This document shows positions 2,960 through 51,510 of a DNA stretch of 64,000 bases, piece after piece. The notes beneath the pieces are model-generated. The model saw nothing but the letters and a program-made list of their open reading frames with translations. It did not search any database and had not been told where the DNA came from. Source of the stretch: a virus; the IMG/VR virus record IMGVR_UViG_3300003314_000001, positions 1 through 64,000 of that record. One strand, written 5' to 3'. The position numbers were made by a program, and so were the translations under genes. Position 1 is the first letter of the stretch; every line of letters begins with the position of its first letter.

Positions 2960-3442
2960 ATGATTCGTGGACTTGATAGAGTTAATGATTACGTAGCAAC
3001 GATTGTTTCGACGGCAGATAATTATTCTGAACAGATAACATTGAGTGACGACGATACAATAAATGTTGATACAGATGCTTCTGCTTCAGTCTCCAATTAT
3101 CAGCCTGTAATCGAACACGAAAGCGAAAAGAAGCAGAAAGACACCAACGACTTGTTGTGGTATGATTGTAAAAACAATATTGATGCAAATTACACATTCA
3201 ATATTGAAACACGTTATAAGACTGAATACGGTATAACAGTTTATGATACCAGTGGAAATACAACAAATTATGATGGTGAAGACCTTCCTGTTACTGGAAA
3301 CCTAAATAATCTTGATAAGATAGAGGTTTATACTGGTTACAATGACGGTGATACAATCAAATGGCATTACTGGAATATGAAGATTGACGTTAATCAGACC
3401 AAGAGCGCAACAGTGAACACACAAAATATTAGCAGACAATGA
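2960..3442 (+). CDS. Hypothetical protein (possible fibre tip/assembly factor)
   Basis: 160-aa ORF starting 2 nt after the fibre gene. Asn/Thr/Tyr-rich with AT-rich codons. Function inferred from position only. Confidence 0.5.
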   Translation: MIRGLDRVNDYVATIVSTADNYSEQITLSDDDTINVDTDASASVSNYQPVIEHESEKKQKDTNDLLWYDCKNNIDANYTFNIETRYKTEYGITVYDTSGNTTNYDGEDLPVTGNLNNLDKIEVYTGYNDGDTIKWHYWNMKIDVNQTKSATVNTQNISRQ

Positions 3443-3669
3443 AAAAGAGGGAGCGCCTTGACAAACTGATTTCAGCGGACGTTCTCGGTGGCGCATGGAT
3501 TAGTGTTTCCGCTGGAAAAGTGGTGGAAAAGCTTCTCAATCTCTATTATCCGGATACTCTAGGACTATTGATAGGTTGGACTTTAGCGTTCCATTTATCT
3601 ATAGTTCTTGTTCTGTACTGGAAAGAGATTGAAGCAGTAGTTGACGAATACTTGTGGAGTAAATTATGA
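3439..3669 (+). CDS. Small membrane protein (holin-like topology)
   Basis: 76 aa. ATGA overlap with the upstream stop. Hydrophobic span LGLLIGWTLAFHLSIVLVLYW followed by a charged C-tail. Confidence 0.5.
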   Translation: MKKRERLDKLISADVLGGAWISVSAGKVVEKLLNLYYPDTLGLLIGWTLAFHLSIVLVLYWKEIEAVVDEYLWSKL

Positions 3670-4166
3670 TTCCGAAATTCCTACTTGGAGCAGACGACGA
3701 CTATTGGGAGAGTTTCCGAAGAACAGTATATCCGAGAATCCATCCGATTCTTCAAATGCTTCCGTTTCCGGCCTACTCGAAAGGACCCGTACACGAAAAC
3801 CAGTACGTTTGTACGGCGGAAGTCAACCAGAACAATCTGGAAGCCGAGTTGCGCGAAGCCGGGTTCTTTCGGAATCCGATAGCGGCGTACAAGAATCATC
3901 CGGACGGTCGGAAGAGCGTGGGGTCGTGGCGTCTCCTTCCCGCTTGCGACAAGACTGGAATGGTGGAAGACGATATGCAGTTACACGTCACGTTGTTTGA
4001 GTCGGAATACGAAGACCACGTTGACATTTACGCGCACTACGAGAAGAATTGGGAGAAGGACGCCACCGGACACCTGAAGGAATCCGGCTTCAGTGCCGCA
4101 GAAGGCGTCAGAATCGCGTCGGCAGTTATTGAAAGCTACACGTTCTTCCGAACGTACCAGAAGTAA
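3666..4166 (+). CDS. Hypothetical protein
   Basis: 166-aa ORF with ATGA overlap to the upstream gene. No recognisable motif. Confidence 0.55.
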   Translation: MIPKFLLGADDDYWESFRRTVYPRIHPILQMLPFPAYSKGPVHENQYVCTAEVNQNNLEAELREAGFFRNPIAAYKNHPDGRKSVGSWRLLPACDKTGMVEDDMQLHVTLFESEYEDHVDIYAHYEKNWEKDATGHLKESGFSAAEGVRIASAVIESYTFFRTYQK

Positions 4167-4170
4167 TACT

Positions 4171-4344
4171 ATGATTGAACAGATTGCACCTATTGACATG
4201 GCTTACATGCTCGGCTTCTTCATGGCGCTCGCTCTTCGCCGTGGACGAATTGACTCAATGATTGGCGGAATGATGAAGTGGTTCCCGAACGAAAAGAATC
4301 CCGGAATCGGTCCGAGAGAGGACTCGAACGGAGGTGAGAAGTAA
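4171..4344 (+). CDS. Small membrane protein
   Basis: ATG at 4171 inside ORF-track 4093..4344, 57 aa. Hydrophobic span IDMAYMLGFFMALAL, then RRGR and a charged tail. Confidence 0.4.
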   Translation: MIEQIAPIDMAYMLGFFMALALRRGRIDSMIGGMMKWFPNEKNPGIGPREDSNGGEK

Positions 4345-4442
4345 TGGGTTACTTCGAGGAATGTCCCGACTGTGGGTCCGCTGTAGCATTCATCGAGGGT
4401 TGTGAGAAGTGCGTGGCGCGCTGTGGTTGGTCGGCTTGTTAG
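4344..4442 (+). CDS. 32-aa zinc-ribbon mini-protein
   Basis: Below the ORF-track cutoff. TAATG overlap with the upstream stop. MGYFEECPDCGS..GCEKCVARCGWSAC carries CxxC..CxxC. Confidence 0.35.
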   Translation: MGYFEECPDCGSAVAFIEGCEKCVARCGWSAC

Positions 4443-7397: not shown

Positions 7398-7420
7398 TGC
7401 TAAAATTTTTTAGGTGTTTG

Positions 7421-7675
7421 CTAGCAGTCGGGAAGTGGGTCGCCACCGTCGAACAAGTCAGTCATTTCTGGAATTTCTCGCTTCACTTTGTAATGCATGT
7501 CTTTTCGTTTAAGTTCCTTGGATATTGTTTTTCTTACATACCACAGGTTTCTGATACATTCGTGACAGTAGTAGAATGCATCAATTATGATGTTCGTTCT
7601 GCTCCTTTTTATTTTCTGGAAGTACGTAGTGTTCCTATGCTTCTTTTCCTCTCTACAGTTCTTACAGCGAGCCAT
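7421..7675 (-). CDS. Zinc-finger protein
   Basis: Internal ATG (MARCKNCREEKK...YYCHECIRN) of ORF-track 7421..7765. The upstream extension overlaps 7662..7886. The C-terminal codons carry the CAGTCGGGAAG motif. Confidence 0.5.
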   Translation of the reverse strand: MARCKNCREEKKHRNTTYFQKIKRSRTNIIIDAFYYCHECIRNLWYVRKTISKELKRKDMHYKVKREIPEMTDLFDGGDPLPDC

Positions 7676-7886
7676 ATGGATTGAATTCCTTTCCGTTCTT
7701 CGTGAGCCAGATTCGATTCGGTTCAGCGAAATCAACAAGACCGGAATTCTTCCATTTCCGGGCAAACTCGCGTGTCGTCATTGGGTGCAAGCCAATCTGA
7801 TTCCCGAGAGGAACAACACGTATCACGTCGCGCTTTTCTGCCCGTTCCTGTACTAGCTTGAACAGGTGGGCTTCCTCGTACTCCAT
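7662..7886 (-). CDS. Putative winged-helix DNA-binding protein
   Basis: 74 aa. The helix-turn-helix-like stretch MTTREFARKWKNSGLVDF and the small size suggest wHTH. Weak by-eye call. Confidence 0.45.
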   Translation of the reverse strand: MEYEEAHLFKLVQERAEKRDVIRVVPLGNQIGLHPMTTREFARKWKNSGLVDFAEPNRIWLTKNGKEFNPYGSL

Positions 7887-7948
7887 ACGTATCCCGAGAG
7901 AAGGTGCTACTATAGGTTTTATGGTTTCAGTCCGGAAGCCGCCGCGGG

Positions 7949-10495
7949 TCAGCAGAACGCCGACAGACCTGCCTGCTGTTGTCCCGATATGGCGGCGTCC
8001 ACATCAACTCCTATAGCGCCGAGAATCGGTTCCAGTGGAGAACGAATGGTCAGGTCTAACATCTTCACCGTGCGTACCTCAAGCCGACTCTCAAGCTCGT
8101 CGTCGGCATTCTCGAAGTCCTCGAACGTGATAACGTCCACTTCTTCTCCGTCAACCAGAACTTCCGGATTGTTGAGGTAGACCCGACCGGGTTTCGCACT
8201 GTTTTGCATTTCTACTCCCGTCAACTCCGACCAGAACTGGTAGCCGCGAAGGTGAGCCGTCACCGAATCGTACTCGTCAAACGGCTGTCCGAAACCTCCC
8301 GGAACCTTGATACGTTCCCATGACGGGTCTTCGCCACCAATCTCGTCGGCGGCGTCCTCCACAATCCGACTGATTTCCTCGTCCGACTTCAAGTCCAGAA
8401 TCGCGTGAATGACTTTCACTTGCGTTTCCTCGGACAGTTCGGAACTGTCAGACCGCTCCGAACCGTATCCAGTGATAGTGTACGACGGGCTTTCCATCCA
8501 CGTTCCTTCCTCCCACACGTCCTTGTGGGCGTACCGCTTCTTGTTTCCGGACTGGAAGAACGTCTCTGCGAGTGCTTCCGGTTCTATCTCCCAACGGTTG
8601 TCTTCTTCCGGAATACCAAACTCGGTGGCGAATTCCGGATACACTTCCTCGTTAAGCTCTCGGCAGATTTCCTTCGTCCGCTCCACACATTTCTCGTGGG
8701 AGTATTCGTCCGGGAACTTGATGTAGTTACTGTCCGTGTCACCGTAGGCGATTTTGCACTCGGTTTCCTCCCGAACGTATCGGGCGGTCTCCTTGATACA
8801 TTCTTGACCTAACTGTGTGACTGCTTCCGCCGCTTGCGGGTCGAACAGGAAGAATGGTTCCCACCCACCGACTCCGTATGTGGAGTTAGTGACAGTTTTC
8901 TTGGAACCGTATTCTTCCTCTTTCGCCTCGAATTCTTCCGTTCCCGGTTCCATCTTCTTTAGCTCCTTCTTCGCCGCTTCCTTCAGCGAAATGCCTTCGT
9001 CGGTAATCGCCGGAAGTGCCGCGTCCTTATCAAGTCGGAAGTACGCTACGTCACCAGTCTGTTCCAGCGGTGCTTCCGAAACGTTGATTCCGATACTCCG
9101 GAGCTTTTCGACCTTGGCTTCCAGACTGTCGAAGTTACTGTCTTCGTCCAGTGTTACCTTGGATTCCGACCCAAGATTGAACATCGCCATCGTGTTCGGG
9201 TACAGACTGGAAAGGTCGATACCCATAACATTCAGGAGAACACCAATGGACGGGTCGAAAACGTAGGAACCCTCAAAGTCGTAGTCCGGACGACCATAAT
9301 TCGTAGTCGGACCGACTTTCTCCCAATCGTGAAGCTTTCGCCGCGCCATCATCTCGATGTAGTCCGAATTGGAACGAGTGTCGTTCCAGTCTACACCAAC
9401 AACGTCCCGGAGCGTTCCCCAAAATGAGAACACTTCCAGTTCGTTGTTCAAGTCACGACATAGAGTAACGTCAACAGCGTTATAATTAAGGAGAAGTGTT
9501 GGGTCTTCCTTCCACATCTGGTGGTAGCCCATGTTAGTGTGTTCCACCTTATCCGCACCAATTTCCATTTGGGCTACGTCGCCAAGAGCCTTCACGTCCG
9601 GTTCCGTGAACTTCGTCCGAAGCCATGCGTCCTGTAAGTCGTAGACGGTTCGACCCTTGATGATTGGCGTTCCGGAACGAGTAACTTTACTGAAGCCTTC
9701 ACGGGAAAGACTTCCGGAATCCAATCCTATCTTATCGAACCGCTGGATGAAGTGGCGTGCGTCGAAATCCTCGAAGTTCCATCCGGTTAGAATGTCGGGG
9801 TCAGTGTTCTCAATGAAGTCCGAGAACGCTTCCAACATCATCTTTTCGGTCGGGCGAACTTCCAGTCGGTCCAAGTTCTCTGGTCGTCCGTTCGGGAAGC
9901 ATTCTTCCACACCTCTTCCACCAGTCTGGAAGAACCCAACCGTCTCGCCGTTGAACGAGTCTTCCGCGACTATGGACAGAATCTCCGTCTCACCGTCCTT
10001 GTCAAAGTTACCTCGGTCGTCAGTCTCTATGTCGATGTAGGAAATCCGGGATTCCGGTTCCTTCATCTCAATAGCTTCAACTTCCGAGATATGACATTCC
10101 TCGTCAGGGACACGGATTCCAGTATAGACTCCTGTCTGAATCCGGAACAACTGTTCGAGGGACACGTCCGCTCCGTAGCGGTCGTCGTAGTCGAAATACT
10201 TCTCCGCTATGTCTCGGGCGTCCCACTGACTCTCCACGTCGATACGCGACAAGTCTTCGTCCTTCCAGCCTTTCTTCACTGGGTCGTGTTCGATATTTTT
10301 AACGGACTGTACAGAATGAAGTTCGTCGGCTTTCTCATGGACCTTCTCCGTAGGGGCGAAGAAGCGCGGCTGTAGACCGTACACAGTCGCCGAATCAAGC
10401 CTGTTGTCTTCTGTACGTCCGTACAGTCTAATCTTCTGCTCGTTCGTATTGTAGTCCTTGACGGACTCCGTATTGGTGATTTTGAATTCTTTCAT
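7949..10495 (-). CDS. polB: Family B DNA polymerase
   Basis: 848 aa. Exo I YIDIETDD, Exo II GWNFEDFD, Exo III YNAVDV, motif A DLSSLYPN, motif B KKTVTNSTYG, motif C YGDTDS. Confidence 0.95.
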   Translation of the reverse strand: MKEFKITNTESVKDYNTNEQKIRLYGRTEDNRLDSATVYGLQPRFFAPTEKVHEKADELHSVQSVKNIEHDPVKKGWKDEDLSRIDVESQWDARDIAEKYFDYDDRYGADVSLEQLFRIQTGVYTGIRVPDEECHISEVEAIEMKEPESRISYIDIETDDRGNFDKDGETEILSIVAEDSFNGETVGFFQTGGRGVEECFPNGRPENLDRLEVRPTEKMMLEAFSDFIENTDPDILTGWNFEDFDARHFIQRFDKIGLDSGSLSREGFSKVTRSGTPIIKGRTVYDLQDAWLRTKFTEPDVKALGDVAQMEIGADKVEHTNMGYHQMWKEDPTLLLNYNAVDVTLCRDLNNELEVFSFWGTLRDVVGVDWNDTRSNSDYIEMMARRKLHDWEKVGPTTNYGRPDYDFEGSYVFDPSIGVLLNVMGIDLSSLYPNTMAMFNLGSESKVTLDEDSNFDSLEAKVEKLRSIGINVSEAPLEQTGDVAYFRLDKDAALPAITDEGISLKEAAKKELKKMEPGTEEFEAKEEEYGSKKTVTNSTYGVGGWEPFFLFDPQAAEAVTQLGQECIKETARYVREETECKIAYGDTDSNYIKFPDEYSHEKCVERTKEICRELNEEVYPEFATEFGIPEEDNRWEIEPEALAETFFQSGNKKRYAHKDVWEEGTWMESPSYTITGYGSERSDSSELSEETQVKVIHAILDLKSDEEISRIVEDAADEIGGEDPSWERIKVPGGFGQPFDEYDSVTAHLRGYQFWSELTGVEMQNSAKPGRVYLNNPEVLVDGEEVDVITFEDFENADDELESRLEVRTVKMLDLTIRSPLEPILGAIGVDVDAAISGQQQAGLSAFC

Positions 10496-23803: not shown

Positions 23804-23880
23804 TACGGAGACCGGGATTTGAACCCGAATCTTCCCTCTGGTGAAGAGAGACGCATTATGCCGAACAATGCTACCTCCGT
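23804..23880 (-). tRNA. tRNA-like gene, anticodon register ambiguous (CAC/Val best paired; UCA in the alternative register)
   Basis: Acceptor ACGGAGG/TCTCCGT, T-arm TCGGG-TTCAAAT-CCCGG, D-arm GCAT..ATGC. One extra nucleotide, and C at position 37 in both registers. Confidence 0.5.
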
Positions 23881-23964
23881 TGATTTTCTAACGCGCCCAT
23901 TTCCGGACTATTCAGTCCGTTACAGCGCGGGAGTACAGGCTGGCCTAACCTGATAGCTCCGGAG

Positions 23965-24038
23965 CGCCGTCCCAAGGACTCGAACCTCGAACAGTCTGCT
24001 CAACAGGCAGATACCCGTACCAGACGGGTCCGGACGGC
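23965..24038 (-). tRNA. tRNA-Asn (GUU)
   Basis: Cloverleaf folded by hand. Acceptor GCCGTCC/GGACGGC, anticodon arm TCTGC-CTGTTGA-GCAGA, T-arm CGAGG-TTCGAGT-CCTTG. Confidence 0.8.
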
Positions 24039-24459
24039 TCTTGTCTTCCTCCCTTCTCACAGAGAGGGTAGTAGAATATAAAAGTTTCGATGTGTCCGGA
24101 GCAGTAGTGCTTGTCCAGACACGCCCACGCCCCCGCGTGTCCCTGAAGTCCCCTACAATTTGTTGTCCGGCACGGCCCAAGGCCGGAGTCCCCGGCGGGT
24201 TGTGACACCCATACAAACCGGGGGAACCACTCGTGGTCAATTTTCATACCGGTTGATACCGGCTTCTCATTACGGTCGTAAACGGCGTTTCATTCGTTAG
24301 CACCTCCATCTATCACCCGTTTTTCACGGGCGTCTCAATACATATTTAACAAATATTTTGTCCGGAACCGGAAAGAGGCGACTTCTCTACGGACGCTTGT
24401 TAGCAGAACAGTCTCATTAGTGTTCTTATTAGTCCGAATCGCAGTTACAGTTCCGGTAA

Positions 24460-24532
24460 GGGACCCGGTAGGTGTCGAAACCTACAACTACTCTCCATTC
24501 CGGAAAGCACTCTACCATTGAGCTACAGGTCC
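24460..24532 (-). ncRNA. Aberrant tRNA-like element (GAA-like loop lacking U33)
   Basis: Good acceptor GGACCTG/CGGGTCC and D-arm GCTC-AATGGTA-GAGT. The anticodon loop is CGGAATG and the T-loop has 8 nt. Confidence 0.35.
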
Positions 24533-24655
24533 AAAGTGAGAAAATATGATAGAAGATACTCTACGGGGTGACTAGACCCATGCTTGTGGATTGTCGCCTC
24601 CTTGTCTTTATGACAAGGTGTTGACGACCTCTACCGGAACAAGCGGTCCGGCTCA

Positions 24656-24726
24656 TGGGTCTGGAAGAATTTGAATCCCCGAGAACAGCCGTTTGGAGCG
24701 GCGTTCTGTTCCTGACTTTCAGACCC
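24656..24726 (-). ncRNA. Degenerate tRNA-like element (CCA-containing loop, no D-arm)
   Basis: Acceptor GGGTCTG/CAGACCC. Long hairpin AGAACGCCG-CTCCAAA-CGGCTGTTCT. Weak T-arm GGGGA-TTCAAAT-TCTTC. Confidence 0.25.
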
Positions 24727-24873
24727 GGAACAGATATTTATATACCACCTCCTATGTGGGTGGTCCCGGATAGCCAGTCCGGATTCGGTGGCTAACCGTG
24801 GAAGTTGTATCTCTCTGGAATTCTGAAGGTTCCACCTTACAGTCTTCCTCAAGTACCGGATTCCAAGCCGGTA

Positions 24874-24947
24874 AGCGTTCGCCCGGACTCGAACCGGGAT
24901 TTCCGACTTACAAAGACGGTGTGTTGCCAATTAGCCACTACGAACGC
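24874..24947 (-). tRNA. tRNA-Thr (UGU)
   Basis: Acceptor GCGTTCG/CGAACGC, anticodon loop TTTGTAA (one T-T mismatch in the stem), T-arm CCCGG-TTCGAGT-CCGGG. Confidence 0.8.
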
Positions 24948-24951
24948 ACTA

Positions 24952-25036
24952 CGGGTACGACAGGATTCAAACCTGCAATCCCTCACGGGAACTTGTTTTC
25001 AAGACAAGCGCAATCGTTCATTTCTGCCACGTACCC
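24952..25036 (-). tRNA. tRNA-Ser (UGA), class II
   Basis: Acceptor GGGTACG/CGTACCC, anticodon arm CTTGT-CTTGAAA-ACAAG, long variable arm TTCCCGTGAGGGATT, T-loop TTTGAAT. Confidence 0.85.
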
Positions 25037-25039
25037 ATA

Positions 25040-25131
25040 CGGACGGGACCGGATTTGAACCGGCAATCCTCGTTCAAAATAAGGAACTGGATTAGCAATC
25101 CAGCGCAATTGTCCATTTCTGCCACCCGTCC
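25040..25131 (-). tRNA. tRNA-Ser (GCU), class II
   Basis: Acceptor GGACGGG/CCCGTCC, anticodon arm CTGGA-TTGCTAA-TCCAG, long variable arm, T-arm GCCGG-TTCAAAT-CCGGT. The 5' half is paralogous to tRNA-Ser(UGA). Confidence 0.85.
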
Positions 25132-25155
25132 AAGTCTAAGAACGACCGGGTAGGG

Positions 25156-25171
25156 TCGTTCCCCCTAAGAG
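25156..25171. repeat. Right arm of the 16-bp inverted repeat flanking the tRNA island
   Basis: TCGTTCCCCCTAAGAG. Adjacent 7-bp hairpin AACGACC..GGTCGTT at 25141-25160. Confidence 0.7.
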
Positions 25172-25192
25172 TAAGAGAGAAGGTCTGTTTCC

Positions 25193-25235
25193 TTCTCCCT
25201 CCTTACCAACACGTCCTATCTACTTAAGTCTTACG
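25193..25235 (-). promoter_or_regulatory. Class-3 promoter-like repeat facing the tRNA island
   Basis: Gene-sense CGTAAGACTTAAGTAG-N12-TTGGTAAGGAGGGAGAAGG, about 60 nt before tRNA-Ser(GCU). Confidence 0.5.
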
Positions 25236-25653
25236 TGTAGAGAGTGGTTTCGTTAAGGTCCCAACTCCGTTTCGCTTCATCTACCGGCACGACTTTCTGT
25301 GGGTCGTCGTACTCGATAGGGTGTCCGTTATTGAATTGGGCGATTCCGAATTCGTACACGTTCTCGCGGTCTTTCTCCACGATGATGATTGTTTCAACCT
25401 TACCTTGGTCCAGTAGGCGTTCCTGCTTCGAGAGCTTCTTCAGAATGGATTCGGAGACGGCGTATCCTTGAAGTTTCTCGAAGAAGTGTTTGTCGTCGTC
25501 GCCGTGGTCTTCCCGATTTCTACGGGATACATAGCACAGTCCTCGTTCTTCGGACCGTGCGAGGTATCCTACTGGTCCGCGACGGAAATGGTTGATGTTA
25601 CCTTTTTTATGCAACTCGGGTGGGCCGATTTCCTCGAAATCGTAAAGGGACAT
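25231..25653 (-). CDS. Hypothetical protein
   Basis: 140-aa ORF. Its stop overlaps the promoter repeat that faces the tRNA island. Confidence 0.55.
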   Translation of the reverse strand: MSLYDFEEIGPPELHKKGNINHFRRGPVGYLARSEERGLCYVSRRNREDHGDDDKHFFEKLQGYAVSESILKKLSKQERLLDQGKVETIIIVEKDRENVYEFGIAQFNNGHPIEYDDPQKVVPVDEAKRSWDLNETTLYT

Positions 25654-25673
25654 TTTTAATGGGCTAAACCCAA

Positions 25674-25886
25674 TTAATCGTCTTCTTGAAGACTTGTTTC
25701 TACGTTCATTTCTTGAACTTCTTCTTTTTCCAAGTATCTGCTTAAGTCATTCTGCAATTTCTCGCCGAGAAATTCAACTACTTCATCCTTGGAATCAAGT
25801 TCTTGTGACTCTTTGATTTCTTCGATTTCTTCATCAGTAATCGGCGATTCAAGAACGAAATCTATCTCTGCAATTGCTTTATTCAT
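25674..25886 (-). CDS. Hypothetical acidic protein
   Basis: 70-aa ORF with ATGA overlap to the upstream gene. Confidence 0.5.
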   Translation of the reverse strand: MNKAIAEIDFVLESPITDEEIEEIKESQELDSKDEVVEFLGEKLQNDLSRYLEKEEVQEMNVETSLQEDD

Positions 25887-26131
25887 TGTTTTTCTTCTGG
25901 ATTCCGGTCTACTTCTTGTCGGTCTTCCGTCACGAGAATCGTCCAGTTCCGGTTGAACATCTCGGTCTCGTAGGCGTCCAACTTCAGAAGGTCAGTTCCT
26001 TCCAGTTCGTCGTTAACGTACTTCTCTACGTAGTGACGCCATGATTCTTCCAGTTCTTCGTCGCTGTACTTGTTAGCGTTCTGTGCGTCGGTTCGACAAT
26101 CCGGTTCCGATTGGTTTTCTTCGTCTGTCAT
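25883..26131 (-). CDS. Hypothetical acidic protein
   Basis: 82-aa ORF, co-oriented. Confidence 0.5.
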   Translation of the reverse strand: MTDEENQSEPDCRTDAQNANKYSDEELEESWRHYVEKYVNDELEGTDLLKLDAYETEMFNRNWTILVTEDRQEVDRNPEEKQ

Positions 26132-26394
26132 GAGGCCGTGTTACTCCTTTATGCTTCTCGCAGAATCCTCTACCGTTCGGTACAGGCTTTCTATTACATC
26201 CGGGTGTTCTGCACATAGTTAGAACAGGGGTGGGGACAGTGTGTGACAGGTCTGTCCCCGAATGCCACCTTCCAGAATCGAACTGGAAACCACCGGAGAA
26301 AAGCCGGTGGTGCACCATGCGACGGTTGACGACAACCCAAGATTTCACCAATGTTCTGTCAAGCTCATTGGCTAGGAGAGAAAGTTCCCTACGC

Positions 26395-33858: not shown

Positions 33859-34290
33859 TTATTCAGTCTGGAAGTCGCGCATGGCTTGTTCTCGCGGGTC
33901 TAAGTCTTCTTCTCCGGTGTACTCAATCGTTTGTTCTTCCTTGTACCCACAGTCTTTACACCGGAGAATGCACACCTTTCCAGCAGGTATGAACTTCCAG
34001 TATCGGTGGTTGCATTCCGGACACCTTCCAGCATGTCCGGGGAAGTCTAACTGTTCCAGCACGTCATTCCAACATTCACCGCAAGCGCCGCTCGCCGGAG
34101 ACCTATTTCCACACACTTCATAACGGTCGCAAGCGTCCTCCGGAACATGTTCGACGTTTTCCAGATTCTTGATTCTTTCCTTCAGTTCGTCGTCAGTTAG
34201 TTCTTTCACGTCTTCCTCCTTTTCCGTGTCTTCCTTAGTTGTTTCGGTCTGTTCCTCTGCCGGGTCGTAGAATCCGTTATCAAAGCTCAT
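33859..34290 (-). CDS. Multi-zinc-ribbon protein
   Basis: 143 aa with several Cys pairs (CGECW, CPECN, CKDCG). Confidence 0.55.
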   Translation of the reverse strand: MSFDNGFYDPAEEQTETTKEDTEKEEDVKELTDDELKERIKNLENVEHVPEDACDRYEVCGNRSPASGACGECWNDVLEQLDFPGHAGRCPECNHRYWKFIPAGKVCILRCKDCGYKEEQTIEYTGEEDLDPREQAMRDFQTE

Positions 34291-34448
34291 TATTTTTCCT
34301 CCAATTTCTTTTGTCGTGCTTCTTTTCTGGCGTTGAATGCTTTTTCTCGGTCTTCAGAGTAGTGTTTCCGGTCGTATTTTTGTTCTATCCTTGCCAATTC
34401 ATCGTAAAACTTCGCCATTCTGATTGTTTCTTTCAATGAATATTTCAC
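34290..34448 (-). CDS. Small basic helical protein, paralogue 3 of 3
   Basis: GTG start at 34448 (ATG alternative at 34418). ...AKFYDELARIEQKYDRKHYSEDREKAFNARKEARQKK. TAATG overlap downstream. Confidence 0.4.
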   Translation of the reverse strand: MKYSLKETIRMAKFYDELARIEQKYDRKHYSEDREKAFNARKEARQKKLEEK

Positions 34449-34612
34449 TTTTCCATCACCTTATTTCGTGCCATTTTCCGAAGATAAAATGCTTCCGCTC
34501 TATCAATGCAATCCATCTTTGTCCGTCCTTCTTTCCGTTCGACGTTAGCCATTTTGTCGTACTTCCGTGCCGTATTTATCAAGATTTGTATTCTAGGACT
34601 GTATTTATTCAT
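34445..34612 (-). CDS. Small basic helical protein, paralogue 2 of 3
   Basis: MNKYSPRIQILINTARKYDKMANVERKEG..DRAEAFYLRKMARNKVMEK. ATGA-coupled. Confidence 0.45.
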   Translation of the reverse strand: MNKYSPRIQILINTARKYDKMANVERKEGRTKMDCIDRAEAFYLRKMARNKVMEK

Positions 34613-34767
34613 TCTTTCATCACCACTGCCCGAGCTTTCTTCCGAAGTCTAAACGCTTCCTTTCTATCGTAGGAGTAAAATTCACCTGCTGTAATCTCCC
34701 TGTCACGTCTCGCCATTCTGTCATGGTTCTGTGCTACGTTCACTAAGTATTGTACTCTCTTGTTCAT
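34609..34767 (-). CDS. Small basic helical protein, paralogue 1 of 3
   Basis: MNKRVQYLVNVAQNHDRMARRDRE..DRKEAFRLRKKARAVVMKE. ATGA-coupled on both sides. Confidence 0.45.
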   Translation of the reverse strand: MNKRVQYLVNVAQNHDRMARRDREITAGEFYSYDRKEAFRLRKKARAVVMKE

Positions 34768-35093
34768 TTTCCAAGTTCTCGTATTCGTTCTGCACCGTTA
34801 GGCTGAACAAGTCCGTCAGCCCAATTGATTATTTGTGGTCGTGCCTTCACTGTTCGGTCCGCGCTGAAGGCGTTGATGTGCCTGTCTGTCGTGTTTGATG
34901 TATCAACAGTCCTCCAACCAGTGTACTTCGTCACCTCGCCGTCACTGGTTCGATGTGCGTAGATACATCTATCATAGCCTATCAGGAGGGTGACTTGCCC
35001 GACTGACTTTACCTGCATGGTTTCGGTATGGTTCATCATTCCACTGTCACCCATTTTGAAATGAGCGAACAGTTCCTCGTTCCGAACTGTCAT
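34764..35093 (-). CDS. Hypothetical protein
   Basis: 109-aa ORF, co-oriented. Confidence 0.55.
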   Translation of the reverse strand: MTVRNEELFAHFKMGDSGMMNHTETMQVKSVGQVTLLIGYDRCIYAHRTSDGEVTKYTGWRTVDTSNTTDRHINAFSADRTVKARPQIINWADGLVQPNGAERIRELGK

Positions 35094-35108: not shown

Positions 35109-35786
35109 CTAATCCGCCATAAGTTCTTCCCCTATCGTATGTTTATGACCGTAGTCAACCAGAACAAGCTCGTCATCCACGTAGCCGACGTTCCGAGTTG
35201 CCCAATCTTCGTATTCCCAACCTAAGTCGGTACATTCGTCTCGGATTTCGTTCATTTCATTTCTCGAAACTCCACTATTATCAGCACGTCGCTGGACTAC
35301 CCAATCGAAATCTTCTCCGAAGTCGATTACCGGAGCAAGATACTCACCAATTGGTGTATCCTTTAGTCGAACCCATCCTTTCACTTCTTCTTCGTTCGCC
35401 CACTGGCTACAGTCAAGGACTCCTACACCTGCTGAAGCATGTTTTTTGATTTCCTTTACTACTAACTCTTCTGGATTATCGAACGGAATCTTCGTGTCTT
35501 CCTTCGGGAAGTAAACATTTCGGTAACACCCGTCCGAGATGTATTCCAGACCGTATTCTTTTTCATCTTCATGAGTGAATGACGAATTCATTGAGAAAAT
35601 GTTATTAAGCATTTTCCATGCTTCAGCATTCACTCGTTCCAGTTCGTCTCTCCAATGTTTTTCTAACTTGTCTTCCGGTCGAACGAACGTCTTCTGTTCG
35701 CCGTCCGGTTCCTTCATTTGAACGTCGCTCCAATTCTTTTGTAGGCTGTTCTCCTTCAGAACGTCACGTCGAAAATTCTTAGTCAT
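35109..35786 (-). CDS. Protein-kinase-like fold protein (degenerate G-loop), paralogue of 35786..36601
   Basis: 225 aa. LVVKEIKK, EEVKGWVRL, LAPVIDFG, DWATRNVGYVDDELVLVDYG align with its neighbour. Shared N-terminal WSDV..K.P and L.R.N.EA. Confidence 0.6.
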   Translation of the reverse strand: MTKNFRRDVLKENSLQKNWSDVQMKEPDGEQKTFVRPEDKLEKHWRDELERVNAEAWKMLNNIFSMNSSFTHEDEKEYGLEYISDGCYRNVYFPKEDTKIPFDNPEELVVKEIKKHASAGVGVLDCSQWANEEEVKGWVRLKDTPIGEYLAPVIDFGEDFDWVVQRRADNSGVSRNEMNEIRDECTDLGWEYEDWATRNVGYVDDELVLVDYGHKHTIGEELMAD

Positions 35787-36601
35787 TATTTTAGGACTCC
35801 TTTGTCAATCTCGTTATTGTAGCCGTAATCCAGAAGAACTGGTTCGCCGTCAATGTAGCCACAATTCCTTTGCTTCCAGTCACCGTAGGAGAATCCGAGG
35901 TCTCTGCATTCCTCCTTCATTTGAATTACTTTATCCAGCTTTACGTCCATGTGGGTTTCCGCTCGCTTCATTAAGACCCACTTGTAGTCCGTTCCGAAAT
36001 CGACTACTGGAGCAAGGTATTCTTCCACTTCCGTATCTTTCAGCCGGGAGTAGACTTTCACTTCTTCCTCGTTCGTCCATTCTTCATGGTGAGAGCAGAC
36101 TTTCAGAACGTAGTCTTCCGGATTCTCCAACGGAATCTTGGAATCTGAATCAAATCCGTAGACAGTCCGGAAGTTGCCCGACCCAATCATCGAAACACCC
36201 CACTCCGTCAATACCTTATTTTTAGGCATGGCGGAGAAGTCGTGATGGGAAGTGAGGTGGTCGAGCTTCAAGCGAGCTTCCCGATTAATTCTGTCCAATT
36301 GGTTACGATAACGTTGCTCTACAGCTTTCGTTCCACGTTTCGGAAGACGCTCCGTGTCAGAAGGCGTCTTCTTCCGAACATCACTCCACTTCTTACTTTC
36401 CGGAAACATGACTTCCGGAACTTCGTCTGCTTCTACATTAATTTGGAAACTTCCAGTGAATTTCCTTTTCATGTTGGTGTGTTTTCTCGGGTTTGATACA
36501 CTCATTTGTTTGAGTACTTTCTGTTCTACTTTCTTGTCGTCAGCTTTTTTCTCGTTCGATTCAGAACTACCAAAGAGATTTCTTAGGAAATCGGGAATCA
36601 T
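35786..36601 (-). CDS. Protein-kinase-like protein (RIO/Kdo-like atypical kinase)
   Basis: 271 aa. G-loop IGSGNFRTVY, beta3 Lys YVLKV, alphaC EEEVKVYSRL, catalytic-loop-like GDWKQRNCGY, DFG-like LLDYG. Confidence 0.65.
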   Translation of the reverse strand: MIPDFLRNLFGSSESNEKKADDKKVEQKVLKQMSVSNPRKHTNMKRKFTGSFQINVEADEVPEVMFPESKKWSDVRKKTPSDTERLPKRGTKAVEQRYRNQLDRINREARLKLDHLTSHHDFSAMPKNKVLTEWGVSMIGSGNFRTVYGFDSDSKIPLENPEDYVLKVCSHHEEWTNEEEVKVYSRLKDTEVEEYLAPVVDFGTDYKWVLMKRAETHMDVKLDKVIQMKEECRDLGFSYGDWKQRNCGYIDGEPVLLDYGYNNEIDKGVLK

Positions 36602-36653: not shown

Positions 36654-36809
36654 TCAGTTATCGCACCGAATGCAACCGTTCTTCATTTTACTGTCTGTAC
36701 TCTCCAAACCACAATCCTCGCACTTCCAGTACTTGTGGTCTGGAACACCTCTCTTGTCACGTCCGGTATACGGACCGGAAACTTGTGATTCTTGCTTTCC
36801 AACAGCCAT
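36654..36809 (-). CDS. 51-aa zinc-ribbon mini-protein
   Basis: MAVGKQESQVSGPYTGRDKRGVPDHKYWKCEDCG...NGCIRCDN. Below the ORF-track cutoff. Confidence 0.4.
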   Translation of the reverse strand: MAVGKQESQVSGPYTGRDKRGVPDHKYWKCEDCGLESTDSKMKNGCIRCDN

Positions 36810-48246: not shown

Positions 48247-50046
48247 ATGTCAGATATAGACGATAAAATCATCCAGAAGTTCGCGGATGAACAAGGACTG
48301 GACCCTGATAAAGTCAGGAAGCGGTGGCACAACAGTCCGGCCACCATAGCCGAAGACATATTCCGGATTGAAGACGTTGACACCGGACAACTTCGTGACT
48401 TGACACTGTTCCGACCGATTCAGACGAAGGTGGTTGACGCCTACTTCTACTCTGATTCCGGAACAATTAACATGTATAAGGGTCGCCGTATCGGTTATTC
48501 CTTCATTGTTATCGTCTGCTTCCTTCTGGAAGCGATGATGATACCGAATTCGGTGTATCCGGTTGTGTCAACGAAGGAAGACCAAGCGAAAAACCGAATT
48601 TCTGACGTTAAAGACCTAATTAAGCACGCTAAAATCGACATTCCGACGAAAAAGACCAATAAAGGAGAAGTTATTCTCTGGAACGGGTCGAAATTCAAGG
48701 CTTACTCCGGAAGTCCGGACAGTTCCCGTGGGGACGACTCCGCCCGCGGCGTTCTACTGGACGAAATGGCTTTCCTTGAAGACCAACAGGAAGTTAGTCA
48801 AGCGTTCGGAGCGTTCCTTGCGCTTGGTAATGACCGGAAGATGTTCGAGGTTTCCACTCCGAAAGTATCCTCGGACATGTTCATGCGGAACCAGAAAGAA
48901 GGTTCCAAAACAGGATACGTCCAGCGGTGGCGTGATTCCAACGGAAATTGGCATAAGCAGGACGTTAAGCCGAACGAATACCATGTTGGAATGGAATCCG
49001 CTGGAACACTGTCGATTAAACAGCCAACGTTCCATAACGCGGACGAAATCGACATAAATACTCCACTTTACAATCAGGAACTTAAGCCGGTTCGTCCCGA
49101 CTTGAACATTGATAAGGTGGAAGACGAGCGTTCCAAAGACCCGAAAGGATTCGGACAAGAATATCTGTGTAGGCCTGTTGACGACACCTACGCATTCTTC
49201 GATGAAGATTCCATTAAACGGGCTATGGAGCGCGACCTTCCCGACCTCCGACGTTCTAACATGACAGTGATGGGTGTTGACATTGGAATTTCCAAAGACG
49301 ACACCGTTGCCGCAATCGTGGAACACCGGAAAGACATGAAGGCTATGAGAGAGTTGGAGATTCTTAACGATACCAACTTGAAGGAAGCCGCGGAAACCCA
49401 TAAGAGAAATGAACAATTGCATCCTCGACACGTCGCACATCAAGTTGCCAAGAATCCTGACCGGAGCAACCCCGAACAAATCGCTTACCGTGTCAGTCAA
49501 CTGGCGGAAAAATACGACGTGGACTATATCGTTATCGACCGGACCGGACCGGGCGAAGGTTTCCGTAGTCAAATTGAGTCGAACTTCGGACGCGGACTTA
49601 TAGGATTCAACTTCTCCGACAAAGACGAAGTGGAATCAATGATGGGCGACATGAACAACGCCCTTCGGAACGACCGAGTAGTTCTTCCGAATCACGACCG
49701 ACTCTTGGACGAAATGTCGGCCATTCAGAAGGAACAACGTGAAGACTACACGAAACCGAAATTCACTGGAAAGGATTACAGTGAGTCAGGAAAAGACGAC
49801 ACCGCAATGGCGGCGGTCTTGGCGAGTTTCCCGCCGAACCTTCGTAAGCAACCTTCTACCTCTATGGATTCAGTTCAGAGAGAAGGAAAGCGGGAAATAA
49901 ACGAAGACGAGAAGAAGAAGAAACCCACCGCTAAGGTGGACGTTGAAGACACTTTCGAGCCGGAAAGAAACTTCGGACAGACGAATACGAAGAATAGGCG
50001 CGGAAAAAAGCGTAAAAAGTACAAATCGAGATACGGACGGGGATAA
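48247..50046 (+). CDS. Terminase large subunit
   Basis: 599 aa immediately upstream of portal. Walker-B-like VLLDEMAF, nuclease-domain-like MGVDIGISKDDTV. Basic C-tail. Confidence 0.85.
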   Translation: MSDIDDKIIQKFADEQGLDPDKVRKRWHNSPATIAEDIFRIEDVDTGQLRDLTLFRPIQTKVVDAYFYSDSGTINMYKGRRIGYSFIVIVCFLLEAMMIPNSVYPVVSTKEDQAKNRISDVKDLIKHAKIDIPTKKTNKGEVILWNGSKFKAYSGSPDSSRGDDSARGVLLDEMAFLEDQQEVSQAFGAFLALGNDRKMFEVSTPKVSSDMFMRNQKEGSKTGYVQRWRDSNGNWHKQDVKPNEYHVGMESAGTLSIKQPTFHNADEIDINTPLYNQELKPVRPDLNIDKVEDERSKDPKGFGQEYLCRPVDDTYAFFDEDSIKRAMERDLPDLRRSNMTVMGVDIGISKDDTVAAIVEHRKDMKAMRELEILNDTNLKEAAETHKRNEQLHPRHVAHQVAKNPDRSNPEQIAYRVSQLAEKYDVDYIVIDRTGPGEGFRSQIESNFGRGLIGFNFSDKDEVESMMGDMNNALRNDRVVLPNHDRLLDEMSAIQKEQREDYTKPKFTGKDYSESGKDDTAMAAVLASFPPNLRKQPSTSMDSVQREGKREINEDEKKKKPTAKVDVEDTFEPERNFGQTNTKNRRGKKRKKYKSRYGRG

Positions 50047-50049
50047 AAC

Positions 50050-51510
50050 ATGAGTAATGACGTAAGGCAGAGCATATATGAGCGAGTCCGGAATGGGGAC
50101 GTTGACGGTGTTGACGCCTCCAATTTCGCCCTTGACAGTCCAAAAGCTGTCATTAAAGAGGGTAATTCCGGTAGTGGCGTTGGTGGAAGCCGCGCTACAG
50201 AAGCTCCAGAGAACGAAATCGAAGACTTCCGGGAGATTGCTGACACGGACCCTCACGTCAACGAAGCTATTGATACGCTCGTTGACTTTCTCGTCGGAAG
50301 TGGTTTCAATGTTCAGCCTGCTAATATTCCCGGAACGGACGAAGGTCAGACACCTGAAGATATAGCGGAACTGAAGAAACTTATTGAAACTTCTACTTTC
50401 CAGACAGTGCTTCAGGAATGGGTCTGGCACGCTCTTGTTGACGGAACAGCCTTCCTTGAAATCGTTGTGGAAGATGATGTGTTTAAGCCGAAGGTTCTTC
50501 CAACGGAGCGCATGAAGATTCAGACTGACGATAAAGGAACTGTCCAAAAGTGGATTCTGGAACCTCCGGGCGGCGGAGGTCAAGATAGTGACATTAAGTT
50601 CAATCCGTCCGACCTTGCGATTCTAAGATTCCATAAACATCCGGGTGAAGACTTCGGACACAGTGTTCTGGAATCCTGTCACGAGCAAGCTGACATGCTT
50701 CGAGACATGGAGATTGACCTTGCTCGTTTCATCGCTACTAAGGCTTACCCGCCAATTCTGTGGAAGCTTGGAAGCGAGGAACGGCCTTGGACGCAGGACC
50801 AGATTGACGGATGGTTAGAGGAACTGGAAGAAATCGACCCGGAGAGTCAACTTGCGGTCGGTCACGACGTTGAACACGAAGTGGTAGGTGTTACGGACAC
50901 TTCCACTTCTTCTGGAGCTATGGAACTTGATTCCACTTTCAAACATCTTCAGCGTCGTATTGCCGCTGGAATTGGTGTTCCGGACTTCTTCCTGAATATG
51001 GGTGTTGACGTTTCGTCTGGAACTGCTCAAGTGGAAATGCCGAAGTTCGACCGCCGAATTCAGCGTTATCGGAGTATTATTAAGCAGGCTATCCGACACC
51101 AAATCTTCGTTTCGATTCTTGCAGGTGACGGAGACCCCGCTGACTATAATGAGGTTCCTCCGGACTTTGAATTCGGAACGCATAGTTCCGAGGAAGAACG
51201 TCTGGAAGCTGACAAGGCGATTAGTCTACTTAACAATGGCCTTATCAGTCCGGAAGCCGCCGCACGTAAGCTTGATATAGACCCGGAAACGGAGCTTCCC
51301 GACATTTGGAAGAATGGAAATCTTATTGAGGTTCTACAGAAGCTCGCTGGAAACGGCGATAATATTCAGAACCCTAATGGTGGTAGTCCGACTGATACGG
51401 GAACTGGAACGGATTCTGCTGGTGGCGAGGCTACAACTCGGGAGAAGCCCGCTACCGGAGACAATTCCGGCGATGATTCCCGGAATGGAAAAGGAGCAAG
51501 CGAAACGTGA
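50050..51510 (+). CDS. Portal protein
   Basis: 486 aa. Canonical position between the terminase and the prohead protease. Confidence 0.8.
   Translation: MSNDVRQSIYERVRNGDVDGVDASNFALDSPKAVIKEGNSGSGVGGSRATEAPENEIEDFREIADTDPHVNEAIDTLVDFLVGSGFNVQPANIPGTDEGQTPEDIAELKKLIETSTFQTVLQEWVWHALVDGTAFLEIVVEDDVFKPKVLPTERMKIQTDDKGTVQKWILEPPGGGGQDSDIKFNPSDLAILRFHKHPGEDFGHSVLESCHEQADMLRDMEIDLARFIATKAYPPILWKLGSEERPWTQDQIDGWLEELEEIDPESQLAVGHDVEHEVVGVTDTSTSSGAMELDSTFKHLQRRIAAGIGVPDFFLNMGVDVSSGTAQVEMPKFDRRIQRYRSIIKQAIRHQIFVSILAGDGDPADYNEVPPDFEFGTHSSEEERLEADKAISLLNNGLISPEAAARKLDIDPETELPDIWKNGNLIEVLQKLAGNGDNIQNPNGGSPTDTGTGTDSAGGEATTREKPATGDNSGDDSRNGKGASET

Follow-up and report, generated by a model that had tools for sequence, protein, structure and literature searches.

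A tandem pair of putative minimal protein-kinase-like enzymes lacking the C-terminal lobe in a haloarchaeal tailed virus

The kinase domains of phage polyvalent proteins (Kinase-PolyVal, PF18762), described computationally by Iyer et al. 2017, have wholly lost the C-terminal kinase subdomain whilst keeping an intact active site, and occur either within giant proteins or as stand-alone open reading frames (ORFs); their describers considered them closer to protein kinases and predicted that they phosphorylate host proteins like the T7 kinase (PMC5512222). The T7 kinase (gp0.7) is a protein-kinase-like (PKL) enzyme that is made early, phosphorylates many host proteins and disarms defences; its kinase domain is of full size, with DPV in place of DFG, and a DNA-binding/shut-off domain follows at the C-terminus. 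It exemplifies the phage kinases recently shown to be broad counter-defence weapons (PMC13645617). Truncated kinases are also known from bacteria, where NleH1, NleH2 and OspG are functional Ser/Thr kinases without Hanks subdomains VIII-XI (PMC12756638), and such kinases can thus be active, sometimes only with a partner bound, as OspG is activated by E2~ubiquitin (PMC11078946). With regard to archaeal tailed viruses, a 2021 survey names thymidylate kinase as the sole kinase (PMC8651126), and our literature search found no virus-encoded protein kinase in this group. Described herein are two adjacent genes, ORF A and ORF B, within positions 1 to 64,000 of the IMG/VR virus record IMGVR_UViG_3300003314_000001 (this whole stretch of 64,000 nt being the window). 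With moderate confidence, which extends to the mechanism and role proposed below, their products are regarded as catalytically competent minimal PKL phosphotransferases.

The two genes and their junction are as follows.
35786..36601, minus strand: ORF B, 271 aa, upstream of A, for a minimal protein-kinase-like protein that has a long extension at its N-terminus
35109..35786, minus strand: ORF A, 225 aa, the downstream copy and a paralogue of B
35784..35788, minus strand: TAATG stop/start overlap, read from the sequence, in which the B stop and the A start share 1 nt
A preliminary description, made from the letters of the window, had placed a pair of kinase-like paralogues at these same coordinates, and each of the motifs it quoted can indeed be read in the translation of B (IGSGNFRTVY, YVLKV, EEEVKVYSRL, GDWKQRNCGY and LLDYG) or of A (ISDGCYRNVYF). 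The paralogy is borne out by BLASTP, which aligns A and B at 39 % identity over 211 residues (E=1e-49), including the common N-terminal K.WSDV..K.P and L.R.N.EA stretches. Relative to B, A is without about 53 residues of N-terminal linker and carries a 10-aa insert between beta3 and alphaC. The start codon of B is validated by its N-terminus (M..F.L..LFG.SES), which aligns with the homologues P0002 and P0003, and the WSDV..K.P motif is kept in A, B and both of these proteins. Due to the 1-nt overlap of the B stop and the A start, the two genes are taken to be co-transcribed, with which the arrangement is consistent, and the overlap may also couple their translation. A search with the family hidden Markov model (HMM) reveals A and B as the only kinase copies in the window.

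Searched singly, A and B find no model in Pfam, NCBIfam or PADLOC even with E ≤ 10, and nothing significant amongst PDB sequences. Such results are what one would expect if the kinase-like motifs were coincidental and the ORFs were of an unrelated fold, and this explanation must be judged against the family to which the two proteins belong. B (E=4.9e-12) and A (E=3e-6) are both recognised by PHROG 4301, labelled ‘unknown function’, over profile positions 18-173 of 225. A word-indexed homologue search returned only 3 proteins, and an exhaustive HMMER search was needed to reveal the family; with a 4-sequence profile this yielded 308 representative clusters at E ≤ 1e-3, mostly of 130-200 aa. The family HMM recovers A at E=3.7e-47 (hmmsearch), and one protein of 194 aa, G17_00012, is a clear member (hhalign probability 98.8 %, E=8e-17). 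Comparison of the locus with phage genomes by blastn gave no match, and scans of IMG/VR, JGI metagenomes and GTDB genomes with alignment A1 found no relatives. Matches to YdjC at E=0.01 (16 bits vs a 29.7-bit cut-off, and therefore sub-threshold) and to an IgG-degrading protease and SWI3 (E about 0.3-0.5) were dismissed as noise.

Against PDB sequences the 4-sequence profile produced noise only; the 94-sequence profile (A2) matched TTK/Mps1 at E=1.8e-7 and CK2alpha at E=3e-6. In the TTK alignment the motifs of the family are in register throughout, with GsGssRvVf against GSGGSSKVF, VvK against AIK, esEv against RNEI, and veDikpeNvG...liDYG against HSDLKPANF...LIDFG. Some of the 94 members also have weak Pfam matches, namely to YrbL-PhoP_reg (12), DUF5898 (6), Kinase-PolyVal (5), Pkinase (4), ABC1 (2), APH (2) and RIO1 (1), all of which belong to the Pfam PKinase clan (PMC9758233).

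The canonical kinase elements of B are located as follows.
36167..36184, minus strand: glycine-rich loop GSGNFR, residues 140-145, with the family signature GxGxxR
36098..36109, minus strand: beta3 VLKV with K167, the ATP-anchoring Lys, aligned with the AIK Lys of TTK
36059..36073, minus strand: alphaC NEEEV with N177 and E180, the Lys-pairing Glu, E180 being aligned with RNEI of TTK
35864..35881, minus strand: catalytic loop DWKQRN (base D241, K243 and N246), aligned with DLKPAN of TTK
35822..35830, minus strand: DYG with D258, the Mg-binding Asp, aligned with the DFG of TTK
Conservation was counted in a domain alignment of 139 sequences, using the numbering of B. Conservation of at least 80 % is reached by just 12 core columns, and all five canonical kinase catalytic positions are amongst them: G142 (127/139) and R145 (134/139) of the glycine loop; V165 (119/139) and K167 (138/139) of beta3; N177 (127/139) and E180 (132/139) of alphaC; P198 (116/139) and G248 (126/139); the catalytic D241 (130/139) and the catalytic-loop N246 (127/139); and D258 (138/139) and Y259 (124/139), the first two positions of the DFG motif. 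The catalytic set K167, E180, D241, N246 and D258 is thus 91-99 % conserved amongst the 139 homologues, and is complete in 114 of them, A and B included. The kinase-like landmarks first noticed in the letters of B are therefore genuine, their catalytic columns being conserved amongst homologues and in register with TTK; this applies equally to the equivalents of the catalytic Asp and Lys, on whose conservation the preliminary description had staked its claim. The His and Arg of the HRD motif are absent, positions 239 and 240 being variable (C, V or Y at 239).

Structural prediction supports the same assignment. Whilst the AlphaFold2 model of full-length B, built from 4 sequences, is mediocre (predicted local distance difference test, pLDDT, 59), it nevertheless matched kinases only, and modelling of the core with a 94-sequence alignment gave a pLDDT of 93.3 and a predicted template modelling score of 0.89.
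35789..36304, minus strand: kinase-like core of B, residues 100-271, from the AlphaFold2 model, Foldseek and the profile comparison with PDB
In a Foldseek search of PDB this core has 198 matches at E ≤ 1e-3, and the best 50 of these 198 are all kinases with a probability of 1.00, amongst them CK2, Rio2, CDC7, MSK1, WbdD and JAK1. The two best matches in BFVD have 235 and 188 aa, as do gp108 and gp109 of the haloarchaeal virus HATV-2; uncharacterised proteins from phages of Sphingobium, Klebsiella (RaK2) and Pseudomonas come next, ahead of annotated viral Ser/Thr kinases. Foldseek with an AlphaFold model, the check proposed in the preliminary description, thus returns kinases and not a non-kinase fold. 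That motifs fell into place by chance in an unrelated fold is, accordingly, a vanishingly improbable explanation, effectively refuted by conservation at exactly the catalytic positions, by a profile match to PDB at E=1.8e-7 and by a high-confidence model that resembles kinases only. The order of the catalytic residues, the fold and the profile similarity to known kinases all argue for membership of the PKL superfamily. A canonical eukaryotic-type kinase (PF00069) is not indicated, there being no match to the model at E ≤ 10, no HRD and no subdomains VIII-XI.

The modelled core begins with two N-terminal helices, beta1, the glycine loop, beta2, beta3 with K167, alphaC with E180, beta4 and beta5, and continues with a single alphaE-like helix, the catalytic loop (D241...N246), beta7, beta8, DYG (D258) and a 13-residue tail. 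The conserved N-terminal helices may help to close the hydrophobic core. Beyond the DFG Asp there are only 13 residues in B and 14 in A, close to the family median of 14 (interquartile range 9-28), and the activation loop, the APE motif and alphaF-alphaI (Hanks subdomains VIII-XI) are absent from both. Because they end 13-14 residues after this Asp, A and B are read as minimal kinases without a C-terminal lobe (C-lobe). This layout was not mentioned in the preliminary description.

Amongst the described systems, Kinase-PolyVal shares several features with the pair. A and B are likewise virus-borne and have lost the C-terminal subdomain with the active site intact; one relative, P0048, is a multidomain protein of 1026 aa; 5 of 94 relatives weakly match PF18762 (best E=0.0034); and A has Gln in the last N-lobe strand (position 211, Q in 26/139). 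There are, however, clear differences. B has Met at position 211, neither A nor B matches PF18762 even at E ≤ 10, the present family has GxGxxR as its signature, and it lacks the His-Asp insert, since no His ahead of D241 is conserved. The hosts also differ, Kinase-PolyVal being found in (pro)phages of Verrucomicrobia-Chlamydia and Bacteroidetes, and the present family in a haloarchaeal virus and proteobacterial phages. The parallel with NleH and OspG, drawn on architecture and from their descriptions, lies in the minimal layout without subdomains VIII-XI; these proteins are bacterial type III effectors that act in eukaryotic cells, and are not amongst the best 50 Foldseek matches.

The Pfam family most often matched by relatives is YrbL-PhoP_reg (PF10707; 12/94, best E=2.4e-6), whose member YrbL of E. 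coli (210 aa) is a small PKL protein with the same GxGxxR loop (GTGRHR). YrbL aligns with the family from the glycine loop to the catalytic loop, over 101 columns, at an hhalign probability of 49.5 % (E=1.7e-4). Neither A nor B matches PF10707, and YrbL is the product of a cellular, PhoP-regulated gene and not a viral one; at that alignment probability of 49.5 %, it has Ser (MSLKPQN) at the position of the catalytic Asp and runs well past the catalytic loop. Should this alignment hold, YrbL may itself differ from a conventional phosphotransferase.

The analogy with T7 gp0.7 drawn in the preliminary description stands at the level of the superfamily but not as close kinship (hhalign 24.6 % over 34 columns). 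Membership of the gp0.7 type was rejected, as the hhalign alignment covers only the stretch from the glycine loop to the beta3 Lys, and A and B have DYG rather than DPV and no C-lobe. RIO and Bud32 offer a further comparison, being compact PKL proteins without an activation loop and universal in archaea, and Rio2 is amongst the best structural matches of the B core (1zar, 1zao and 6fdn, with TM-scores normalised to the query, TMq, of about 0.5). This resemblance is structural only: A and B do not match RIO1 (PF01163), and of 94 relatives a single one does (E=0.0012), with P0046, at 21.7 bits, falling under the 22-bit cut-off. RIO and Bud32, unlike A and B, retain helices after the DFG motif.

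The preliminary description had paired an active kinase, B, with a pseudokinase or divergent kinase, A. The elements of A that bear on this are as follows.
35520..35537, minus strand: glycine loop SDGCYR, residues 84-89, in which Ser takes the place of the first Gly
35451..35462, minus strand: beta3 VVKE with K111, equivalent to K167 of B
35382..35396, minus strand: alphaC NEEEV with E134, equivalent to E180 of B
35190..35207, minus strand: catalytic loop DWATRN (D194 and N199), with the basic residue at D+4 and not at D+2
35148..35159, minus strand: DFG-like VDYG with D211
That A might be a pseudokinase or regulatory subunit which modulates or scaffolds an active B is suggested by several of its features. 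The first Gly of its glycine loop and the Lys at D+2 are missing, the 10-aa insert lies ahead of alphaC, and A is more divergent (34 %) than B (44 %) from the single-copy orthologue on the Logan contig L003; moreover, the alphaC Glu is lost in one copy of two other pairs, and degeneration of a partner therefore does occur in the family. The degenerate glycine loop previously reported for A is literally true but proves to be a minor change, affecting the first Gly alone (SxGxxR), in a form shared by 8/139 sequences, with DxGxxR (15) and AxGxxR (7) as further variants. A basic residue at D+4 only is similarly recurrent (22/139). The DxAxRN form of the DWATRN loop, as in DLAARN, is canonical for the catalytic loop of active tyrosine kinases. 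Above all, A keeps all five catalytic residues (K111, E134, and D194, N199 and D211 in place of D241, N246 and D258 of B), and has lost none of the beta3 Lys, catalytic Asp or DFG Asp by whose loss a pseudokinase is recognised. This conservation implies ongoing selection for catalysis or nucleotide binding in A. The pairing of an active kinase with a pseudokinase is thus not upheld, and such a role for A is judged distinctly unlikely.

If both proteins are catalytically competent, K167 and E180 (K111 and E134 in A) would position the ATP phosphates, N246 and D258 (N199 and D211) would bind Mg2+, and D241 (D194) would serve as the base when the gamma-phosphate is passed to a hydroxyl. Both would be non-RD kinases and, because there is neither an HRD arginine nor an activation loop, are probably constitutively active once made. 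The choice of targets would probably fall to the N-terminal extensions, in which A and B differ, or to a bound partner. The most likely targets of A and B would be proteins of the host and/or the virus, phosphorylated early in infection in the service of takeover or counter-defence, a role that is suggested by analogy with the T7 kinase (PMC13645617) and the polyvalent-protein kinases (PMC5512222).

Several observations weigh against this reading. Single-sequence searches found no domain model, as stated above, and the TM-scores of the Foldseek matches are moderate (about 0.5 normalised to the query). The family does not conserve the Lys that Ser/Thr kinases typically have at D+2: the residue at D+2 is basic in 72/139, that at D+4 only in 22/139 and neither in 45/139. 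In the absence of alphaF-alphaI there is no recognisable peptide-binding platform, and the proteins could conceivably act as ATPases or depend on a partner, like RIO and Bud32. Catalysis by members of the family is deduced from sequence and model, and early expression from gene position only, and the ten ORFs around the pair yield no match in Pfam or PHROG, and so no functional clue. What the data show directly is the fold, the conserved motifs, the arrangement of the genes, the distribution of the family and the recurrence of pairs; catalysis, a preference for protein over small-molecule substrates, timing and biological role we infer.

A different view sees A and B as nucleotide-dependent switches or ATPases (as RIO and Bud32) or as kinases of small molecules, sugars, lipids or nucleic-acid ends (as APH, Kdo/WaaP and WbdD), in both cases working with the one catalytic core. 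The structural matches to Rio2 (1zar, TMq 0.51) and WbdD (4azt, root-mean-square deviation 4.5 Å over 160 columns) are in keeping with it, as are the weak matches of some members to APH, ABC1 and RIO1, the variable Lys at D+2, and the absence of the activation/P+1 loop and of the alphaF-alphaG substrate platform. The strongest profile matches, however, are to the bona fide protein kinases TTK and CK2. Small-molecule kinases of the PKL fold normally have extra C-terminal helices that form the substrate pocket; in A and B, DFG is followed by 13-14 residues only. Furthermore, the minimal kinases NleH and OspG phosphorylate proteins (PMC12756638, PMC11078946), and it was to protein kinases that C-lobe-less phage kinases were judged closer by those who described them (PMC5512222). 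A function other than protein phosphorylation is consequently deemed rather unlikely, and A and B continue to be viewed here as probable protein kinases.

Relatives of the pair are sparse amongst sequenced phages, being present in 41 of 50,697 records. These include HATV-2, Erythrobacter phage XM05 (where the protein is annotated ‘kinase’), Stenotrophomonas phage Bhz59, and jumbo phages of Escherichia, Salmonella and Erwinia, in which a few of the copies bear a Ser/Thr kinase annotation. Tandem pairs occur in 4 of the 6 viral contexts examined, the window included, and there is one further, fused case. In HATV-2, a cultivated haloarchaeal myovirus of the family Soleiviridae, the tandem pair consists of gp108, with 235 aa, and gp109, with 188 aa, which are annotated as hypothetical. 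Two metagenomic viral lineages also have a pair: a 45-kb JGI contig (L005) carries P0009 and P0014, and a further locus (L007/L008) carries P0010 and P0011, 22 nt apart. Single copies are found on L003, which is syntenic with the window (a B-like gene at 44 % identity, then a 109-aa ORF at 70 %, then ORFs of 143, 157 and 96 aa, with no A), and on L009, where the kinase gene is followed by a homologue of the same 109-aa ORF (43 %). In the fused case, P0048, two complete mini-kinase domains (residues 293-459 and 505-642) precede DUF5824 (653-780), and the protein is reminiscent of the ‘polyvalent proteins’ that Iyer et al. 2017 described in phages. The fusion partners of other longer members are uninformative.

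Within the pairs, the alphaC Glu is lost from the second copy of L005 (NPWAV; locus 7407-8597) and from the first copy of L007 (NEAAV; locus 3261-4389), and is kept by the partner of each; this pattern of an active with a degenerate copy is absent from the pair in the window. Three of the four pairs combine one copy with a DxK loop and another with DxA or DxS, and in A and the second copy of L005 there is also Arg at D+4, which generates a tyrosine-kinase-like Dx[A/S]xRN loop. In neighbour-joining trees of the full data the members of each pair group together, with weak bootstraps (0.44-0.59 for A with the B clade, 0.18-0.55 for gp108 with gp109, 0.41 for the L005 pair and 0.35 for the L007 pair), next to values of 0.98-0.99 for B with P0002 and P0003 and 1.0 for the two domains of P0048. 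What is robust is that the three nearest relatives of A are B and its orthologues, and that the two L007 copies, likewise the two P0048 domains, are mutual nearest neighbours. The trees thus indicate, short of proof, that duplication recurred in separate lineages or that an older pair underwent gene conversion, and faintly favour independent duplication of each pair.

As tandem pairs recur in the window, HATV-2, L005 and L007/L008, and P0048 is a fusion of two domains, one may tentatively ask whether kinases without a C-lobe are obligate paired modules, although this is considered improbable. As a hetero(pseudo)dimer, the partners might make up for the missing C-lobe or regulate each other; alternatively, specificity might be split between a Ser/Thr-type DxK copy and a Tyr-like DxA/DxS partner. 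Should this prove true, it would be the first time that a protein-phosphorylation system encoded by a virus, and serving host takeover or counter-defence, is described in archaeal viruses.

The part of B that precedes the core differs from it in character.
36305..36601, minus strand: N-terminal extension of B, residues 1-99, predicted to be disordered, basic, and containing WSDV..K.P
Residues 1-90 have a pLDDT below 50 in the full-length AlphaFold2 model. Residues 1-99 have an isoelectric point (pI) of 9.9 and a net charge of +8, in a window whose proteome has a median pI of 4.65 and in which only 5 of 66 ORFs exceed pI 7. The basic character hints at binding of nucleic acid or an acidic partner, and is not obviously common to the orthologues P0002 and P0003.

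The window itself is the genome of a tailed virus, as is apparent from the following genes.
7949..10495, minus strand: family B DNA polymerase
48247..50046, plus strand: large terminase (TerL)
50050..51510, plus strand: portal protein
23804..26330, minus strand: seven tRNA genes (Val-CAC, Asn-GTT, Phe-GAA, Thr-TGT, Ser-TGA, Ser-GCT and Lys-TTT)
An archaeal tailed virus, as had been supposed, is confirmed by TerL, whose 53 matches amongst phage records are exclusively to haloarchaeal tailed viruses, with HRTV-25 as the best match (52 % identity) and HF1/HF2 at 43 %. On the basis of these matches and of the acidic predicted proteome, the virus is assigned to the haloarchaeal tailed viruses. A and B belong to a long leftward block that runs from about 45 kb to 4 kb and consists mostly of small non-structural ORFs; they are situated upstream of the replication genes.

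Immediately around the pair are a number of further small ORFs.
34764..35093, minus strand: 109-aa ORF directly downstream of A/B, with a pI of 7.9, unusually basic for this proteome
34290..34767, minus strand: three consecutive small ORFs of 52, 55 and 52 aa, with 4-nt overlaps between neighbours
36654..36809, minus strand: 51-aa ORF, about 50 nt upstream of B, with zinc-ribbon-like CxxC...CxxC spacing
The first of these has no match in Pfam or PHROG; its homologues in the closest relatives, L003 and L009, identified by tblastn, also lie directly after the kinase gene, and its product could be a partner or substrate of the kinases. The three small ORFs are mutual paralogues (46 % and 31 % identity) with the common pattern A..YD..A...DR..AF..RK.AR. 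They have no match in the syntenic L003 by tblastn, and the gene table of that contig has just a 37-aa ORF at the corresponding place. The surroundings of A and B thus show local gene amplification, with the kinase gene present twice and the small ORF three times. In HATV-2 a gene annotated ‘Zn ribbon’, gp110, directly follows the kinase pair; tblastn of the 51-aa ORF against the HATV-2 locus, gp110 included, found no similarity.

Whilst the PKL superfamily and the C-lobe-less architecture of viral kinases are already known, and some relatives in bacterial phages have been labelled kinases automatically, the family described herein is new as a distinct one outside all Pfam and NCBIfam models, with members in archaeal tailed viruses and tandem pairs across lineages. 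It spans viruses of archaea and bacteria, and the present analysis provides a concrete, testable activity for at least 308 sequence clusters now labelled ‘unknown function’ (PHROG 4301). HATV-2, being cultivated and in possession of a tandem pair, offers an experimental entry point. With a core of about 135-170 residues these proteins are amongst the smallest kinase-like domains to carry the full catalytic set, and are therefore useful for asking how much of the kinase fold catalysis needs.

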